This document shows positions 7,878 through 55,951 of a stretch of DNA of 64,000 bases, piece by piece. Below the pieces are notes generated by a model. The model was not told the DNA's origin. It worked only from the letters and a program-made list of their open reading frames with translations, and did not search any database. Numbering within the stretch: position 1 is the stretch's first letter; each line of letters opens with the position of its first letter. The DNA is from an uncultured beta proteobacterium (GTDB taxonomy: Bacteria; Pseudomonadota; Gammaproteobacteria; Burkholderiales; Burkholderiaceae_C). The DNA lies in assembly GCA_963750785.1 (NCBI GenBank), contig CAVVSC010000010.1:67767-131766 (forward strand), in the 5' to 3' direction. The position numbers were made by a program, and so were the translations under genes.

Positions 7878-8606
7878 TCATTGCTGCAGCGTCCGCCAGG
7901 CCAGGAGGGTGCCGATCAGCACCGGCTGGTGCAGCATGTAAAAGCTGAGCGACCAGCGTCCCAACAGCGCCAGCGGCTGTGCGCCCCGCGGCAGCGCACC
8001 ACGCAACAGTCCCGGGCGCGCACGCGTCAGATACTGCCCGGCGGCCAAGCCCCACAGCATCACGCCCAGCCAGGGCAGCACGGGCACATAGTCTTCGGTG
8101 ATGGGCTTGAACGCCACCAGCCCGGTCCAGTCCAGGCCCGGCCTGTTGAAAAAGCGGCTGTGCACCAGCTGCGGCATCAGCAGGGCCACGCCGCCCAAAG
8201 GCCAGAGCCACGCCTTCAAGGGCGCGGCCAGGCGGCACAGGATCAGCATCACGGCAATGCCGTGCAGCACGCCAAAGTAGATCCAGCTGCGCGGGAACAT
8301 GAACGCTGAACCCACGCTGACCAGCAGCGCACAGGCCGCCACCTGTGCCCAACGACGCCAGAAACGTGTCCAGCTCTGCCCTGCATGCAGGGCAATGGCT
8401 TGCCCCAGTCCCGCACAAAAGAGGAACAGACTGACGATGCAAGCACGCTGGCTCGTCCACACCAGGTCGCGGTAGAAGTCCTGCGGCGGCTGCAGCAGGC
8501 GGAAGTGGTTCAGGTCAAAGCCGAAGTGGAACAGCGCCATCCACACGATGGCGACGCCACGCAGGGCATCCAGTCGGTCGAAGCGCTGCGTGACGCCGAT
8601 GTTCAC
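7878..8606 (-). CDS. DUF1624 / HGSNAT-like membrane acyltransferase
   Basis: RFDRLDALRGVAIVWM...H, YFGVLHGIA, DYVPVLPWLG, LGRWSLSFYMLHQP. Confidence 0.82.
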   Translation of the reverse strand: MNIGVTQRFDRLDALRGVAIVWMALFHFGFDLNHFRLLQPPQDFYRDLVWTSQRACIVSLFLFCAGLGQAIALHAGQSWTRFWRRWAQVAACALLVSVGSAFMFPRSWIYFGVLHGIAVMLILCRLAAPLKAWLWPLGGVALLMPQLVHSRFFNRPGLDWTGLVAFKPITEDYVPVLPWLGVMLWGLAAGQYLTRARPGLLRGALPRGAQPLALLGRWSLSFYMLHQPVLIGTLLAWRTLQQ

Positions 8607-46557: not shown

Positions 46558-47598
46558 ATGTCTCTCGTTCCCTACGCGCTGACGCGCCTCTTTCTTTTCG
46601 GCCTGGACCCCGAGGCTGCCCATGACCTGACGATGGGCAGCATCGCCCGGCTGCAGAACACCCCCGCGCAGTGCCTGTGGGCGCAGCCGCGTGTGAACGA
46701 CCCGGTCACTTTGGCGGGCCTGAAGTTCCCCAACCGCCTGGGGCTTGCCGCAGGCCTGGACAAGAACGGCCGCTGCATCGACGGCCTGGGCGCCATGGGC
46801 TTCGGCTTCATTGAAGTCGGCACCGTCACACCCAAGGGCCAGCCGGGCAACGACAAGCCGCGCATGTTTCGCCTGCCCGCCAAGAACGCACTCATCAACC
46901 GGCTGGGCTTCAACAACGAAGGCCTGGAAGCCTTCCTGGCCAACGTGCAACGTGCGCGCAGTTTCCGCGCGTCCGGTGGCATCGTGGGCCTGAATATCGG
47001 CAAGAACGCCGTCACGCCGATCCAGTTTGCGGTGGACGACTACCTGATTGGCCTGGACGGCGTGTACCCGCATGCCGACTACGTCACCGTCAACATCAGC
47101 AGCCCCAACACCCAGAACTTGCGCGCCCTGCAGAGCGACGCCGCATTGGACGCCTTGCTGTCAACGCTGCAGGCAAAGCGCCAGGCACTCGCCCGCGAGC
47201 ACGGGCGGCTGGTGCCCATGTTCGTGAAGATCGCGCCTGACCTGGAAACGGACCAGGTGCGCGTGATTGCCGCGACCTTGAAGAAGAACGGCATCGACGG
47301 CGTCATCGCCACGAACACCACCGTGTCACGCGACGCCGTGCGCGGGCAGCCCCACGCCAACGAGACCGGCGGCCTCAGCGGCACCCCGGTGCTGGAGCCC
47401 AGCAACCGCGTCATCCGCCTGCTGCGCGCCGAGTTGGGCGTGGGCTACCCCATCATTGGCGTGGGCGGGGTGATCGATGCGGCCAGCGCGCGCAGCAAGC
47501 TGGAGGCGGGTGCGGACCTGGTCCAGATCTACACCGGCCTGATCTACCGCGGACCGGCACTGGTTGGCGAAGCAGCAGCCGCCCTGGCTGCCCGCTAG
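46558..47598 (+). CDS. pyrD: Quinone-dependent dihydroorotate dehydrogenase (class 2)
   Basis: [37 protein letters not shown] and GGLSG. Confidence 0.96.
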
Positions 47599-47601
47599 GT
47601 C

Positions 47602-48825
47602 CTAGAACCGGTCCAGCGTCGGGAATCCCGGCTGGCCGGTGGTGCAGTCCCATAGCACGCAGGCCATGCCCAGGTCACCCGACCACAAGGTGTGCCGGCC
47701 CTGGCCGTGCACCGCACGCTCGCGTTCCACCTGCACGATGCCGTGCATGGCGAAAGCGCGTGCGCGCTCCAGCCAACGTTCGTCACCGGTGCGCCTGAAA
47801 AGCTGCAGGAAGGCGTGTGCGGTGCCAGCGGTGCCGTGGCAGAACGCCACGCCCTTGTTGAGCGGGCCGGCATGCCAGCTGAGCTCGCCCGCCTGCACCA
47901 GCAAGGTGTCCCAGGCGTCCGCGTCAGGCACGGTATGTGGCAAAGAGGCCAGGCGACAGATGAGACCGGGCGCGCCGTGGCAGTCCTGCAAGAGGGGTGG
48001 CTTGTTGTTGGTGGTGTGGCGCGGCGCGGCAGGCCACCAGTTCACGAAGTCGCCGTCACGCAGGGCCGTGGCTTGCAGGAAGCTCAGTGCCCGCCGTGAA
48101 TAACTGTACAGTTGCGCTGACGAAATGAACGCGGCTCCACGCACGGCCGGGTAGACGTTGCCGACAAAGCCGTGGCCCGCGCCGATCAGCGTCTCGACGC
48201 GGCCGTACATGTTCTGCACCCAGCCGAAGGTGCCTCCTGCTGCTTCAATGGGTTCCATCTCGTCCCAGATGATCTGCACCGCGTGCTGCACCAGCGCCGC
48301 CCAGTGCGGTGCGCCCGTGTGTTCGGCCATGGCGATGGCGGCCAGCACGCTGCCAGGCGAACCCCACAGCTGTTCCCGCACCGGGTTGTGCAGGTTGCCG
48401 TGCACCACGTCGTACAGGCGCTGAGCCGCGGCCTCGTCGCGCGTGAGCTTCCACTGCAGCAGGCGCAAGCCCGACTCACCGATGAGGAAAGACGCCGTGC
48501 CGTGCTGGTAGTCGCCCAGTGCAGCCACCTGCTTGTCGGCCAGGCCCTGCACAAAATCCGTGAAGTCCCAGCGCCTTTCAACGGCACCCGCTTCCGCCAG
48601 GTGTTCCAGCGCCCAGATGGCGCCACCGGCTCCGCCGTAGACCTCGTGCAGCGGCTCGCCCGGTGCGCCGCCGTCCTCGCGTGGGTGGGGATGCCAGCCG
48701 CGCGCAGGGTCGAAGTCCTGCAGCGCCAACGCCGCCCAGCGTTCGATAGCCGCGCGTGCGGCGGCCTCGCTCCACACGTCACCCGCCAGCGCTTCGTGGC
48801 GTTCGGTCCCGAACAACACCGTCAT
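47602..48825 (-). CDS. Orphan LanC-like (lanthionine synthetase C-like, LanCL) protein
   Basis: GAGHGFVG (catalytic His), DCHGAPG and FCHGTAG (Zn ligands), LWSGDLG; alpha/alpha-toroid-type repeats. Confidence 0.85.
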   Translation of the reverse strand: MTVLFGTERHEALAGDVWSEAAARAAIERWAALALQDFDPARGWHPHPREDGGAPGEPLHEVYGGAGGAIWALEHLAEAGAVERRWDFTDFVQGLADKQVAALGDYQHGTASFLIGESGLRLLQWKLTRDEAAAQRLYDVVHGNLHNPVREQLWGSPGSVLAAIAMAEHTGAPHWAALVQHAVQIIWDEMEPIEAAGGTFGWVQNMYGRVETLIGAGHGFVGNVYPAVRGAAFISSAQLYSYSRRALSFLQATALRDGDFVNWWPAAPRHTTNNKPPLLQDCHGAPGLICRLASLPHTVPDADAWDTLLVQAGELSWHAGPLNKGVAFCHGTAGTAHAFLQLFRRTGDERWLERARAFAMHGIVQVERERAVHGQGRHTLWSGDLGMACVLWDCTTGQPGFPTLDRF

Positions 48826-48826
48826 C

Positions 48827-50656
48827 TCAGTCTCCCTTCACCACGCCTTCACGGCGCGGGTCTGCGCCGCCAAACCAGCCCGTGGGTGTGCGCTGGATCG
48901 CCTGCAGGCCGCTGGTCAGTTCGATCTCCGTCACGACGTGGCCTCGGGCTTTCAGTGCGTCCACCGTCGTCGACGGAAACATTCCCTTCTCCAGCACTGT
49001 GGGCCCGTTGAGCGACCCGAAATTGGGCAGGTCGATGGCACGCTGCGCGTCCAGACCCCACTGCAAGCTGCCCAGCAGCGTCTTGGCCACGAAATGGATG
49101 ATGACCGGCCCACCGGGTGAGCCCAGTGACATCACCAGTCGACCGTCAGCCTTGTCGAAGACCAGGGTCGGGCTCATGCTGGAACGCGGCCGTTTGCCTG
49201 GCTCGATACGGTTGGCCACGGGCTTGCCCTGGGCATCGGTGGGCTGCAACGCGAAATCCGTCATCTGGTTGTTGAGCAGGAAGCCACCCGGCAAGCCGGT
49301 GCCGCCGTCGCTCATCACGCGCGCGCCAAAGAAGGCCTCGATGGTGGTGGTCATGGCGACGGCACGGCCTTCGCCGTCGACCACGCTGATGTGGCTGGTG
49401 CCGTGTTCCGGCTGGTCGGCCATGGGCGCGTAGCCGGTGCGCACAGGGTCGGGCACGCCCGGCGTCGCCACGCTCATGGTCTGCGTGCCGATCAATGCCG
49501 CGCGCTGGCGCAGGTATCGGTCGGCCAGCAGGCTTTGCCAGTCGCCACCCGGCGCGGCCACGAAGGCGGGGTCGGCCACATACAGCGCTCGGTCGGCATA
49601 GGCCAGCCGCGAAGCTTCGGTGTAGGTGTGCAACCAGTCGGGGCCGGGAATGCCAGCCACCAGGGCCGGACCCGCCACGGGCGCGCGTTCTAGGATGCCC
49701 AGGATCTGCATCACCGCCAGGTGGCCTGACGAAGGTGGCGGAAAGCCGCAGACGCGCCAGCGCTGCTGCCAGTCGGTGCAGATGGGCTCGCGTTGGCGCG
49801 GCGTGTAGCCAGCCAGGTCGGCGGCGGTCATGCGCCCGGGCACGCTGTGGCCGCGCACGCGCCGCACGATATCCTCGGCCACCGGTCCCGCCGTGAACGC
49901 GGCACTGCCCTGCTGCGCAATGGCACGAAGGACGGCACCCAGTGCTGGATTGCGCAGACGGTGTCCCACGGTCAGGGCCTTGCCTTCGGCGTCGAAGAAG
50001 TGGGGGCGCGCCTGTGGATCCTTGGACAGGTGCGGGTTGCCAGCGATCTGGATCTGCAGCCGCGGGCTGACCAGAAAACCGGCCTCGGCCAGTTCGATGG
50101 CCGGCGCAAACAGTTGCGCCCAGGGCAGCTTGCCGTGGGCGCGGTGGGCCTGTTCCAGCATGACCAGGGCGCCCGGCGTGGCCACGGCGCGGCCGCCGAA
50201 AACGGCGACCCCAAACGGCACGGGCTTGCCGTCAGCGCCCAGGAACATGCGCTCGTCGGCCGCCGCGGGCGCAGTCTCGCGGCCGTCCCAGGCCTTCACG
50301 GCGTGGCCGTCCCAGTGCATCAGGAAAGCGCCGCCGCCGATGCCGCTGCTTTGCGGTTCCACCAGGGTCAGCACCATCTGCACGGCAATGGCGGCGTCCA
50401 TTGCATTGCCACCAGCGCGCAGGATACGGTATCCCGCATCGGTGGCCTGCGGGTTGGCCGCGGCCACCATGAAGCGCTGCGCAGACCAGCCCGGCTTGGG
50501 CGTCCAGCCCGAAGCCAGTTCCGGCATGGCCGGGATGCTGGTACCCACAGACGGGGCCGGCGGGGTCGGTGGGGCCGAAGGGGCCACACTTGCCGGTGGC
50601 GTGGCGCAGGCGCCCAGCCACAAGGCAAGCACAGGCAGGTAGGGCCGGAAATGCAT
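48827..50656 (-). CDS. ggt: Gamma-glutamyltransferase, lipoprotein
   Basis: Lipobox LGAC; EPQSSGIGGG, DGRETAP, GTSHISVVD (Thr nucleophile), RPRSSMSPT and GSPGG. Confidence 0.92.
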   Translation of the reverse strand: MHFRPYLPVLALWLGACATPPASVAPSAPPTPPAPSVGTSIPAMPELASGWTPKPGWSAQRFMVAAANPQATDAGYRILRAGGNAMDAAIAVQMVLTLVEPQSSGIGGGAFLMHWDGHAVKAWDGRETAPAAADERMFLGADGKPVPFGVAVFGGRAVATPGALVMLEQAHRAHGKLPWAQLFAPAIELAEAGFLVSPRLQIQIAGNPHLSKDPQARPHFFDAEGKALTVGHRLRNPALGAVLRAIAQQGSAAFTAGPVAEDIVRRVRGHSVPGRMTAADLAGYTPRQREPICTDWQQRWRVCGFPPPSSGHLAVMQILGILERAPVAGPALVAGIPGPDWLHTYTEASRLAYADRALYVADPAFVAAPGGDWQSLLADRYLRQRAALIGTQTMSVATPGVPDPVRTGYAPMADQPEHGTSHISVVDGEGRAVAMTTTIEAFFGARVMSDGGTGLPGGFLLNNQMTDFALQPTDAQGKPVANRIEPGKRPRSSMSPTLVFDKADGRLVMSLGSPGGPVIIHFVAKTLLGSLQWGLDAQRAIDLPNFGSLNGPTVLEKGMFPSTTVDALKARGHVVTEIELTSGLQAIQRTPTGWFGGADPRREGVVKGD

Positions 50657-50684
50657 GAGGGCTTCCTCCAGGGAAGCCCTCATG
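50654..50684 (-). promoter_or_regulatory. Perfect 13-bp hairpin covering the ggt SD sequence and start codon
   Basis: mRNA reads CAUGAGGGCUUCC-CUGGA-GGAAGCCCUCAUG; GGAGG lies 8 nt before the AUG at 50656. Confidence 0.6.
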
Positions 50685-50715
50685 TTAGGCGAGCCCCTGG
50701 TGCTCGCTCAGCCGC

Positions 50716-51354
50716 TCACAGCAGCGGCACGCCCGTCTTGGATTGCAGGTCTTCGCGGGTCACGCCCGGCGCCATTTCCACCAGCTTCAGGCCTTGAGGT
50801 GTCACGTCCATGACCGCCAAGTCGGTGATGATGCGGTTGACCACGCCCAGGCCCGTCAGCGGCAGCGTGCAGGTGGGCAGGATCTTGAGGTCGATGCTGC
50901 CGTCCTTTTTCTTGGCCACGTGCTCCATCAGCACCACCACCTGCCTGACACCCGCCACCAGGTCCATGGCACCACCCATGCCCTTGACCATCTTGCCGGG
51001 GATCATCCAGTTGGCCAGGTCGCCCTTTTCGCTGACCTGCATGGCACCCAGGATGGACAGGTCGATCTTGCCGCCGCGGATCATCGCAAAGCTGTCGTGG
51101 CTGCCGAAGATGCTGCTGCCGGCGATGGTGGTCACCGTCTGCTTGCCGGCGTTGATGAGGTCAGCATCGACCTTGTCGTCGGTCGGGAAAGGGCCGATGC
51201 CCATCATGCCGTTTTCGCTTTGCAGCCAGACCTCGATGTCGGGGCTCACGAAATTGGCCACCAAGGTGGGCAGGCCGATGCCCAGGTTGACGTAGTAACC
51301 GTCGCGCAATTCCTGGCCGGCGCGGGCCGCCATTTGGTCGTGTGTCCAGGCCAT
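50716..51354 (-). CDS. scoB: 3-oxoacid CoA-transferase subunit B
   Basis: [15 protein letters not shown] (catalytic Glu) and GMGGAMDLV. Confidence 0.9.
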
Positions 51355-51356
51355 GT

Positions 51357-52064
51357 TCAGGCTCCCACTTTCTCAGTGATCGTGCGCTTCTCGATGCGCT
51401 TCTCGGGCGTCGCGTTGACCACGATGCGGTCCACGTAGATACCCGGCAGGTGGATGGCGTCCGGCTCCAGCGCGCCCAAAGGCACGACCTCTTCCACTTC
51501 GACGATGGTGACCTTGCCGGCCATCGCCACGGCGGGGTTGAAGTTACGGGCCGTCAGGCGGAACACCAGATTACCCGAGGTGTCGGCCTTCCAGGCCTTG
51601 ACCAGGGACACGTCGGGCACGAGCGAACGTTCCATCACATAGGTGTGGCCGTCGAATTCACGCAATTCCTTACCTTCGGCCACGATGGTGCCGACGCCGG
51701 TGCGCGTGAAGAAGGCCGGGATGCCTGCACCGCCGGCGCGCAGTTTCTCGGCCAGCGTGCCCTGGGGCGTGAATTCCAGTTCCAGTTCGCCCGCCAGATA
51801 CTGGCGTTCGAATTCCTTGTTCTCGCCGACGTAGCTGCTGATCATTCGCTTGATCTGCCGCGTCTCCAGCAGCTTGCCCAGGCCAAAGCCGTCCACGCCT
51901 GCGTTGTTGGAGATGGCGGTGATGTTCTTGACACCGCTGTCGCGCAATGCATCGATCAGGGCTTCCGGAATGCCGCAAAGGCCAAAGCCACCGACGGCCA
52001 TCAACTGGTCGTCCTGGACCAGGCCGGCCAGTGCTGCCGCCGCGCTGGGATAGATCTTGTTCAT
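51357..52064 (-). CDS. scoA: 3-oxoacid CoA-transferase subunit A
   Basis: [28 protein letters not shown] and ARNFNP. Confidence 0.9.
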
Positions 52065-52079
52065 GCCTTGAAGTCTCCT

Positions 52080-52131
52080 GACGTGAGGCCGGCAGGGTAC
52101 TACGTAAGCCATTAGGTAGACAGTACGTAAG
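52080..52131. promoter_or_regulatory. Repeated TACGTAAG boxes in the divergent scoA / paaI-like promoter
   Basis: Exact copies at 52101-52108 and 52124-52131; degenerate copy GACGTGAG at 52080-52087. Confidence 0.5.
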
Positions 52132-52151
52132 ATCGCCTAAAGCCACTCCCC

Positions 52152-52601
52152 ATGTCCAGCATGAGCGCCATCGAAAAAACCTCGGAACCCATCGCCAACC
52201 TGGCCCTGTTGGAACATGCGCTGAAGACCGTGTTCGCACCCTGGGTGGCCGAACTGGATCTGCGCATCACCGCGGCCACGCCCGGCCAGGTGACGCTGGT
52301 CCTGCCGGTGACGCCGTTGCACGTGCACGGCGGCGGCGTGCTCTGTGGCCAGACCATGATGGCGGCGTGTGACACCGCCATGGTGCTGGCCGTGATGAGC
52401 CAGCTGGGCGAATTCAAGCCCATGACCACCGTGCAGCTGCAGACCAGCTTCCTGCGCCCCGTGCCGGGAGACGCCGGCCAGGCCACGGTCGTGGCACGTG
52501 TGCTGCGCTTGGGCCGAAGGCTGGTCTTTGGCGAGATCGAAGTGCTGGGCCCGAAAGGCGAGCTGGCCGCCCACGCCACCACCAGCTACGCCCTGTTGTG
52601 A
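52152..52601 (+). CDS. PaaI-family hotdog thioesterase
   Basis: HGGGVLCGQTMMAACDTAM; TTVQLQTSFLRP. Confidence 0.87.
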   Translation: MSSMSAIEKTSEPIANLALLEHALKTVFAPWVAELDLRITAATPGQVTLVLPVTPLHVHGGGVLCGQTMMAACDTAMVLAVMSQLGEFKPMTTVQLQTSFLRPVPGDAGQATVVARVLRLGRRLVFGEIEVLGPKGELAAHATTSYALL

Positions 52602-52608
52602 ACGGCGC

Positions 52609-53199
52609 ATGAAAGCCGCCCTCGACTACCGCAGCGCCTTTGAACTGGCGCCGGTGGGTCTGGTGATGTCCCGCGACCGCCAGATGGTGGACTGCAACCA
52701 GGAATTGCTGTCCATGTTCGGCGCCGAACGCCACCAGGTCATCGGCCAGTCCTTCGAGATCCTCTACCCCACGGCGGACGAGTTCCTGCGCACGGGCGCG
52801 CGCATCGCAGCGCAACTGGACGCCGCCGGCCGCTATGCCGATGAGCGCGTGATGAAGCGCCTGGCCGCGACGCCTCCGGGCAGCCCGGCGGGCGAACTGT
52901 TCTGGTGCCACGTCAGCGGCCGTGCCCTGGATCCGACCAACCCCCACGCCGCGGGCATCTGGGCATTTGAGGATCTGTCCTCCAGGCGCGTGCTGTCCGT
53001 GGAACTCACCCCGCGCGAACGCGAAGTGGCCGCTCTGCTGATCCAGGGCCTGACCAGCAAGTTGGTCGGTCGGCGCCTGGACATCAGCCCGCGCACGGTG
53101 GATGTCTACCGTGCCCGCCTGATGCGCAAGGCCGGAGCGGCCACCACGACGGAACTCGTGCACAAGCTGTTGCACGGTCAGTTTCAATCTCACCCCTAG
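52609..53199 (+). CDS. PAS + LuxR-type HTH transcriptional regulator
   Basis: PAS region (CNQELLSMFG...FWCHVSG) plus LTPREREV...ISPRTVDVYRARLMRK. Confidence 0.9.
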   Translation: MKAALDYRSAFELAPVGLVMSRDRQMVDCNQELLSMFGAERHQVIGQSFEILYPTADEFLRTGARIAAQLDAAGRYADERVMKRLAATPPGSPAGELFWCHVSGRALDPTNPHAAGIWAFEDLSSRRVLSVELTPREREVAALLIQGLTSKLVGRRLDISPRTVDVYRARLMRKAGAATTTELVHKLLHGQFQSHP

Positions 53200-55258: not shown

Positions 55259-55951
55259 ATGATCACCGTTCACCACCTGGAAAATTCGCGCTCACAGCGC
55301 GTGCTGTGGCTGTTGGAAGAGCTGGGCCTGCCGTATGAGGTGAAGCGCTATGCGCGCGACCCCAAGACCCTGCTGGCGCCGCCCGAACTGCAGCAGGTGC
55401 ACCCGCTGGGCAAGTCGCCCGTCATCACGGACCAATCCGCGAACGGCCAACTCACCGTGGCCGAGTCCGGTGCCATCGTCGAATACCTGGTGGACGTGCA
55501 CGGTGCCGGCCGCCTGCGGCCCGCGCAAGGCACGCCCGAGCAGCGCCGCTACAGCTACTGGCTGCACTTCGCCGAAGGCAGCCTGATGCCGCCGCTGCTG
55601 ATGAAGCTGGTCTTCGACAAGATCCGCTCGGCCAAGGTGCCCTTCTTCGTGAAGCCCGTGGTCAAGGGCATTGCGGACCAGGTCAGCAAGGGCTTCATCA
55701 CGCCCAACCTGACGCGTCTGATGGCTTTCATGGAAGCTGAACTGGCCAACAAGGCGCAGGGCCTGTGGTTTGCCGGCGCAGACTTCACGGCCGCCGATGT
55801 CCAGATGAGCTACCCGGTGGAAGCCGCCGCAGCGCGCGGCGGCTTGGGCGATTCGCACCCGCACCTGCAAGACTGGCTGACGCGCATCCATGCCCGCCCG
55901 GCCTACCAGCGCGCGCTGAAGGTCGGCGGCCCCTACAGCGTCATTCCCTGA
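55259..55951 (+). CDS. Glutathione S-transferase
   Basis: HHLENSRSQR, HPLGKSP, ESGAIVEYL and FTAADVQM. Confidence 0.92.
   Translation: MITVHHLENSRSQRVLWLLEELGLPYEVKRYARDPKTLLAPPELQQVHPLGKSPVITDQSANGQLTVAESGAIVEYLVDVHGAGRLRPAQGTPEQRRYSYWLHFAEGSLMPPLLMKLVFDKIRSAKVPFFVKPVVKGIADQVSKGFITPNLTRLMAFMEAELANKAQGLWFAGADFTAADVQMSYPVEAAAARGGLGDSHPHLQDWLTRIHARPAYQRALKVGGPYSVIP

Follow-up and report, generated by a model that had tools for sequence, protein, structure and literature searches.

We examined a 64,000-nucleotide stretch of contig CAVVSC010000010.1 (here called the window) from an uncultured, freshwater-type betaproteobacterium whose genome comprises 6.1 Mb, is 99.5% complete, and has 67% GC, and we describe a gene on its minus strand, lanCL (47602..48825), that encodes a stand-alone LanC-like protein of 407 residues. 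The reading that we favor, with a probability of roughly 55%, is that this protein acts alone, outside of lanthipeptide synthesis, as a LanCL-type, zinc-dependent thia-Michael (thiol-ene) transferase of the cytoplasm. The gene lies directly behind ggt, which encodes a gamma-glutamyltransferase (GGT) family lipoprotein, and a preliminary description of this DNA had proposed that the two gene products form a dedicated glutathione-thioether system. We find that the ggt-lanCL adjacency is real, old, and tightly coupled, yet lineage-specific and dispensable, and that lanCL owes its position mainly to synteny that one Burkholderiales clade has inherited at a scoAB...pyrD site. The enzyme would then be independent of the neighboring ggt, with a looser tie to glutathione turnover being possible.

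To our knowledge, bacterial LanC-type enzymes are known almost only as lanthipeptide cyclases, and a glutathione-adding "repair" role is known only for the eukaryotic LanCL proteins, of which LanCL1 and LanCL2 are glutathione C-transferases that act on dehydroalanine and dehydrobutyrine residues in proteins. By sequence, by signature histidine, and by fold, the lanCL product is nearer to eukaryotic LanCL1 and LanCL2 than to the NisC-type cyclases. The LANC_like domain (PF05147) is matched across residues 64-398 with 71.5 bits (cut-off 23.2; E-value 6.4e-20). When the single sequence is compared to the PDB, LanCL2 and LanCL1 are the best matches at about 1e-17, and a profile of 25 family members retrieves LanCL2, LanCL1, and GCR2 at 8e-32 to 1e-27, with LicM2 following at 2.5e-6 and the NisC-type cyclases failing to reach 0.01. 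An AlphaFold2 model consists of all-helical repeats and is of high confidence (pLDDT 88.9, pTM 0.91); a Foldseek search with this model places LanCL2 and LanCL1 at the top (E-value 1e-12, TM 0.70), followed by MadC (5e-9), CuvL, ThurKC, and NisC (1.4e-6), and the Foldseek probability of 1.00 to LanCL1/2, MadC, and NisC identifies the double alpha-helical toroid fold. Like LanCL1, LanCL2, and Arabidopsis GCR2, the protein is a stand-alone alpha/alpha toroid of about 400 residues with no dehydratase or precursor partner; unlike LanCL1 and LanCL2, to which it is 20-25% identical, it is bacterial.

The active site is that of a LanCL protein. The preliminary description had reported the catalytic histidine and both CHG zinc motifs, and all are present, as GAGH218G, DC282H283G, and FC329H330G. 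In an alignment of 25 family members, the zinc ligands C282, C329, and H330 and the acid H218 are invariant, as are H283 and K324, and about 55 other positions are likewise invariant in sequences down to 38% identity. Eukaryotic LanCLs have a histidine beside the first zinc cysteine (His277 of LanCL1) where the stand-alone LanCs of bacteria carry a tyrosine (PMC9934072), and the residue after the first zinc cysteine here is H283, the eukaryotic signature. The glutathione-binding residues of LanCL1 are Arg4, His274, Lys317, His323, Arg364, Asp367, and Glu374 (PMC9934072). H218 is equivalent to H219 of LanCL1, H283 to H277, K324 to K317, which contacts glutathione, and H330 to H323; the His274 position is a glutamine in most family members and a histidine in some, and the N-terminal 60 residues, which carry a family-specific motif with an invariant R9-H10, cannot be aligned to the Arg4 region of LanCL1. 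These matches bear out the claim of an orphan LanC-like enzyme of the eukaryotic type with an intact active site, and it is probably a genuine and active enzyme that belongs to no pathway for peptides made on the ribosome and modified after translation (RiPPs).

Homology in fold and active site gives good support to a chemistry in which a zinc-activated thiol is added to a Michael acceptor; which thiol is used is not supported in this way. In the mechanism that we envisage, the Cys282/Cys329/His330 zinc site would activate a low-molecular-weight thiol. Glutathione would be the likeliest, since the presence of gshB in the genome indicates that the cell makes it. His283 would stabilize the resulting enolate and His218 would protonate it, so that a dehydroalanine or dehydrobutyrine residue, or a similar enone, would end up bearing a thioether. 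Such a reaction may serve in damage control or detoxification.

Could the protein instead be a lanthipeptide cyclase of class I or class V, with its dehydratase and its precursor encoded at another place? Its Pfam family, its Cys/Cys/His zinc site, and its acid histidine are common to class I cyclases such as NisC, SpaC, and MadC and to the stand-alone LanC of class V, the thia-Michael chemistry is presumably shared as well, and NCBIfam returns weak matches to LanL and LanM cyclase domains. However, lanCL is the sole PF05147 locus in this genome, and the preliminary description, which had noted that lanthipeptide partners are lacking from the window, holds genome-wide for the dehydratase and lyase families that were searched: searches for PF04738 (Lant_dehydr_N, LanB), PF13575 (DUF4135, LanM), and PF14028 (Lant_dehydr_C), run without a positive control, gave no match, nor did PF17914, the HopA1-type lyase of class V. 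No LanK/LanY or precursor partner accompanies the gene, and no RiPP genes were found across about 110 related loci. Additionally, lanCL is flanked by ggt and a convergent pyrD with spacers of 1-3 nt, so that at this locus there is no room for a precursor peptide gene beside it. A histidine, not a tyrosine, follows the first zinc cysteine, and the characterized cyclases score far under LanCL1 and LanCL2, with NisC missed altogether by the profile search. The missing dehydratases, the histidine signature, the weak cyclase similarity, and the RiPP-free loci lead us to reject a role as a RiPP cyclase, which we regard as highly improbable.

LanCL is a member of a large solo bacterial family for which the literature searched describes no function. 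When 1.84 billion representatives (clusters at 50% identity) were searched with a profile, 7,144 matched at E<=0.001, a number that falls to 621 at E<=1e-30, and >150 clusters of about 400-residue proteins score below 1e-81. The public names of these homologs are solely "LanC-like protein," "lantibiotic modifying enzyme," or "hypothetical," and a full-text literature search found nothing on bacterial stand-alone LanCL-type proteins or on a pairing of ggt with lanC. Close to home the distribution is patchy: lanCL was found in 11 of the 150 genera of the host's family and did not turn up in the single further genome sampled from the host's genus. At the order level, a profile search found the gene in 4 of 400 genomes, all from one other family and none with ggt or scoAB nearby; at the class level, a single-protein query of 400 genomes at E<=1e-20 gave no further homologs.

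The features of the locus, in the direction of the minus-strand genes and then outward, are as follows.

51357..52112, minus strand: scoA-like coenzyme A (CoA)-transferase subunit A, the first gene of the co-directional cluster (PF01144, 7.8e-78).
50716..51354, minus strand: scoB-like CoA-transferase subunit B (PF01144, 5.4e-44).
50654..50684, minus strand: perfect 13-bp hairpin in the scoB-ggt spacer, with arms CATGAGGGCTTCC...GGAAGCCCTCATG, read from the sequence.
48827..50656, minus strand: ggt, GGT family lipoprotein with lipobox LGAC and catalytic Thr420 (PF01019, 1.6e-142).
48823..48829, minus strand: ggt/lanCL junction, TGA-G-ATG, with a GGGAG Shine-Dalgarno sequence inside the 3' end of ggt, read directly.
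47602..48825, minus strand: lanCL, cytoplasmic stand-alone protein, LanC-like and of the LanCL type (PF05147, 6.4e-20).
46558..47598, plus strand: pyrD, dihydroorotate dehydrogenase, the syntenic anchor (PF01180, 3e-72, and translation).
55259-55951, plus strand: glutathione S-transferase (GST) gene, 6.4 kb off, on the opposite strand and past a two-component system.
About 56-451: gloB, of which only the 3' end lies inside the window, 47 kb from lanCL.

The scoA-like and scoB-like genes precede ggt in the same orientation, which makes the cluster scoA-scoB-ggt-lanCL, with lanCL as its last gene, and lanCL is probably co-translated with ggt. The junction is just as the preliminary description gave it, CAT-C-TCA on the plus strand corresponding to TGA-G-ATG on the coding strand, and we infer that the two genes are co-transcribed. 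On the other side, pyrD converges on lanCL with 3 nt between the two stop codons, and at the far end a 4HBT thioesterase gene and a PAS-LuxR regulator gene diverge from scoA. A scan of 47300-52700 for promoter- and terminator-like sites found none, a result that is uninformative at 67% GC. The preliminary description had also drawn in gloB and a GST gene. Both do occur in the window, the GST gene whole and gloB by its 3' end, and at distances of 6.4 kb and 47 kb we do not count them as linked and reject them as members of the system.

The upstream gene encodes a GGT that appears to be exported. The open frame spans 48827-50683 on the minus strand, and the lipoprotein start was taken at the ATG at 50656, from which the N-terminus reads MHFRPYLPVLALWLGAC, followed by a Pro/Ala/Ser linker; the lipobox was assigned by inspection. 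Each arm of the hairpin at 50654-50684 holds one in-frame ATG, the GGAGG Shine-Dalgarno sequence of ggt falls in the loop and 3' arm, and the downstream ATG of the two yields the better lipoprotein signal. The G_glu_transpept domain PF01019 is full-length (profile positions 2-512 of 512), and the catalytic threonine is present, with GT420SH aligning to the TTH motifs of paralogs. A full domain, the catalytic threonine, and an export signal are also features of the periplasmic GGT with which E. coli and other proteobacteria salvage glutathione. Unlike the E. coli enzyme, the window GGT is a lipoprotein with a Pro/Ala-rich linker, and against the E. coli-type equivalog model it scores 277 bits, far under the 990-bit cut-off; its TIGR00066 score of 354.5 bits is slightly below the cut-off. 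The genome holds four to five GGT paralogs, the window ggt being one. Another of them, outside of the window on contig C4 (10893-12501), is covered by two matches that lie in separate frames (profile 2-410 and 408-512) within a 1181-residue open frame, either a frameshift or an unusual fusion. LanCL, by contrast with the GGT lipoprotein, has no signal peptide, its N-terminus opening directly on a family-conserved motif, and the caveat raised in the preliminary description, that the two steps would occur in different compartments, stands.

How general is the pairing? We gathered about 110 lanCL loci (labeled with L-numbers below) and built a tree on 108 LanCL proteins, which fall into two major clades. 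Clade A (46 rows) includes every locus at the scoAB...pyrD site, and clade B (62 rows) has none of ggt, scoAB, or pyrD nearby in any row (0/62). A ggt orthologue stands directly upstream of lanCL in eight distinct clade A loci, namely the window and seven others (L007, L017, L023, L038, L061, L062, and L082), so that this genome is not alone in having the adjacency; the junctions are 1-nt spacers or overlaps, equally tight in L007, L017, L062, L082, L038, and L061. Downstream, pyrD follows lanCL in L023, L038, L061, L073, L078, L082-L089, and L114. The preliminary description had proposed a neighborhood test for ggt and GST genes around lanCL, and across the family the link to ggt does not hold: there is no ggt near lanCL in clade B, and among 131 immediate lanCL neighbors in all other contexts no family dominates, with DUF6665 seen seven times (in one subclade), methyltransferases four times, and GST twice, and with GGT outside of the 25 most frequent families. 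The DUF6665 genes (120-143 residues) lie 46-130 nt downstream of lanCL on the same strand in L115, L125, L128, L134, L137, L139, and L145; they always follow the lanCL of a long-branch subclade, forming a lineage-specific two-gene unit. Methyltransferases also occur in L062 and L063, where two tandem class-I S-adenosylmethionine-dependent genes are convergent with lanCL (L062:2879-4523, L063:1671-2486) and match PCMT (protein isoaspartate repair) and UbiE-type models.

Where ggt is missing from its place upstream of lanCL, the related loci hold other genes or the remains of ggt.

L084:1-1290 and 1502-2701: second GGT paralog and a major facilitator superfamily (MFS) transporter, upstream of lanCL, with the transporter between the paralog and lanCL.
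L086:488-1375: the same GGT paralog, truncated, lacking roughly the first 230 profile positions and probably a relic.
L073:429-1226, minus strand: phytochelatin-synthase-like gene with a Sec signal peptide (PF05023, 1e-66).
L084:1309-1584, minus strand: phytochelatin-synthase-like remnant between the GGT paralog and the MFS gene.
L008:5002-5130 and L019:7855-7983: ggt 3' stubs (GGT residues 576-618, E-value 1e-12).
L012 and L013:7868-7983 (frameshifted) and L021:about 7880-7954: ggt 3' stubs.

The stubs show that lanCL outlives ggt. They come from a well-supported subclade of 15 rows (metagenome-assembled genomes of Rubrivivax, Ideonella, and Aquabacterium, with LanCL 75-79% identical to that of the window) in which lanCL is off the scoAB/pyrD site. 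In five loci of this subclade, four of them tree rows and the fifth, L019, a partial copy left out of the tree, a ggt 3' stub of 85-130 nt lies directly upstream of an intact lanCL and is the footprint of a former ggt-lanCL junction; the similar breakpoints point to a single loss of ggt that left lanCL in place. Conversely, ggt occurs without lanCL. A ggt orthologue with 52-67% identity was found in 75 of the 150 genera of the host's family, as against 11 of 150 for lanCL, and the two do not co-occur significantly (8/11 versus 67/139, Fisher p=0.21). Among 20 sampled ggt loci, scoAB lies within 7 kb in seven, and two of them, L047 and L049 (L049 being from the host's own genus), have ggt directly convergent with pyrD and lack lanCL. 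In L049 the order is scoA-scoB-SDR-ggt convergent with pyrD, where SDR is a short-chain dehydrogenase/reductase gene that is not present in the scoB-ggt spacer of the window; both flanks of ggt are rearranged. In the genome of L024, where scoB directly precedes lanCL, the ggt orthologue is 600 kb away (L043). Thus ggt is a common resident of the scoAB...pyrD site and lanCL a patchy one, and the restriction of the adjacency to one chromosomal neighborhood, together with the survival of lanCL after the loss of ggt, favors inherited synteny over an obligate pathway.

Certain observations nevertheless weigh against an enzyme that acts alone with glutathione as its thiol, and most of them favor a different account in which LanCL and GGT catalyze two steps of one dedicated route. 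Cytoplasmic LanCL would make, or reverse, glutathione thioethers on dehydro-residues or enones, and the exported conjugate would be trimmed by periplasmic GGT, or elsewhere by the GGT paralog or the phytochelatin-synthase-like hydrolase, in a bacterial analog of the mercapturate pathway. The tight or overlapping ggt-lanCL junction persists across the eight distinct loci from 100% down to 47% LanCL identity. Moreover, ggt has been replaced in situ by the GGT paralog in L084 and L086, in L084 with the MFS transporter, and by the phytochelatin-synthase-like gene in L073, where it sits between scoB and lanCL in the opposite orientation to lanCL; the L084 paralog is 34% identical to the window ggt and has the TTH catalytic motif. 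Two replacements of ggt by extracytoplasmic glutathione-degrading enzymes are hard to dismiss as chance and suggest that the glutathione-catabolic neighborhood is not purely accidental, although the events may share ancestry, as the phytochelatin-synthase remnant in L084 hints. The LanCL-type active site is conserved, including K324, the counterpart of the glutathione-contacting K317. The mercapturate pathway of animals proceeds by cytosolic conjugation, export, an ecto-GGT, a dipeptidase, and N-acetylation, and because it has the same split between the cytosol and the outside, the different compartments of LanCL and GGT do not refute such a route. In keeping with that pathway, the gene for a probable thiol-conjugating cytoplasmic enzyme here adjoins the gene for an extracytoplasmic GGT or, in relatives, a phytochelatin-synthase-like glutathione hydrolase or a GGT paralog with an MFS transporter; unlike in that pathway, an exporter, a dipeptidase, and an acetyltransferase are not consistently linked, and the adjacency is confined to its lineage and has disappeared repeatedly. 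Such a route requires export of the conjugate, for which L084 alone encodes a candidate; the window cluster has neither an exporter nor a dipeptidase. Since every paired locus lies in a single clade and at a single syntenic site, the pairing and replacement events are few and not clearly independent; ggt occupies the site without lanCL, lanCL survives the decay of ggt, the L086 paralog is itself truncated, and genome-wide co-occurrence is insignificant. The residues of LanCL1 that hold the gamma-glutamyl end of glutathione count against both accounts: R364, D367, and E374, in the C-terminal loop, are not conserved by alignment, since HMMER and hhalign (the latter with a LanCL1 sequence that is consistent with the PDB alignments and the PMC9934072 numbering) pair them with V372, Q375, and S382, and the thiol may therefore not be glutathione. 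The claim of a dedicated LanCL-GGT system, as first made, is thus not supported. The link between the two proteins is suggestive, and on the strength of the two in-situ replacements we keep the two-step route as a live rival, if an unlikely one.

Two further accounts set ggt aside. In one, LanCL would work with the CoA-transferase ScoAB, adding a thiol to, or removing one from, an enoyl or 3-oxoacyl intermediate of a scoAB/4HBT thioesterase pathway, with ggt an interloper. For example, scoB stands immediately upstream of lanCL, with ggt absent, in nine related loci, mostly basal lineages of clade A, and is translationally coupled to it in L024, where the scoB stop and the lanCL start overlap as TGATG; wherever a ggt-lanCL locus extends far enough, scoAB is also seen upstream. 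However, scoAB is highly conserved (82-95% identity) and holds the site in genomes that lack lanCL, two subclades have lanCL away from the site, clade B never has it near scoAB, and we know of no LanC-family chemistry on CoA esters; we consider this partnership quite improbable. The other account is that the protein is non-catalytic, either a ligand-binding or regulatory LanC-like protein, as LanCL2 and GCR2 were formerly suggested to be, or a relic carried at an operon's end. The want of a conserved partner across the 131 neighboring open reading frames would fit, as would the patchy distribution, but the catalytic and zinc residues and some 55 others would hardly be expected to stay invariant down to 38% identity in such a protein, and lanCL is intact in many lineages in which the adjoining ggt decays. 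This, too, seems improbable to us. The transferase that acts alone remains the account that we prefer.

For annotation, the lesson is that a neat ggt-lanCL junction is by itself weak evidence of shared function, as the wider context reveals largely inherited synteny. A bolder picture, which we offer as a speculation that is doubtful at present, is that this clade runs a mercapturate-like route in which cytoplasmic LanCL glutathionylates dehydroamino acids or enones, the targets being damaged proteins or environmental dehydroalanine-containing peptides, the conjugates are exported, and periplasmic GGT or a phytochelatin-synthase-like enzyme trims them; the family would then be the bacterial counterpart, and a possible source, of eukaryotic LanCL. 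With or without such a route, if members of this family do add thiols to dehydro-residues or enones, then bacteria possess LanCL damage-control chemistry, and these proteins would provide a tractable model for that chemistry and would bear on the origin of the eukaryotic LanCLs.

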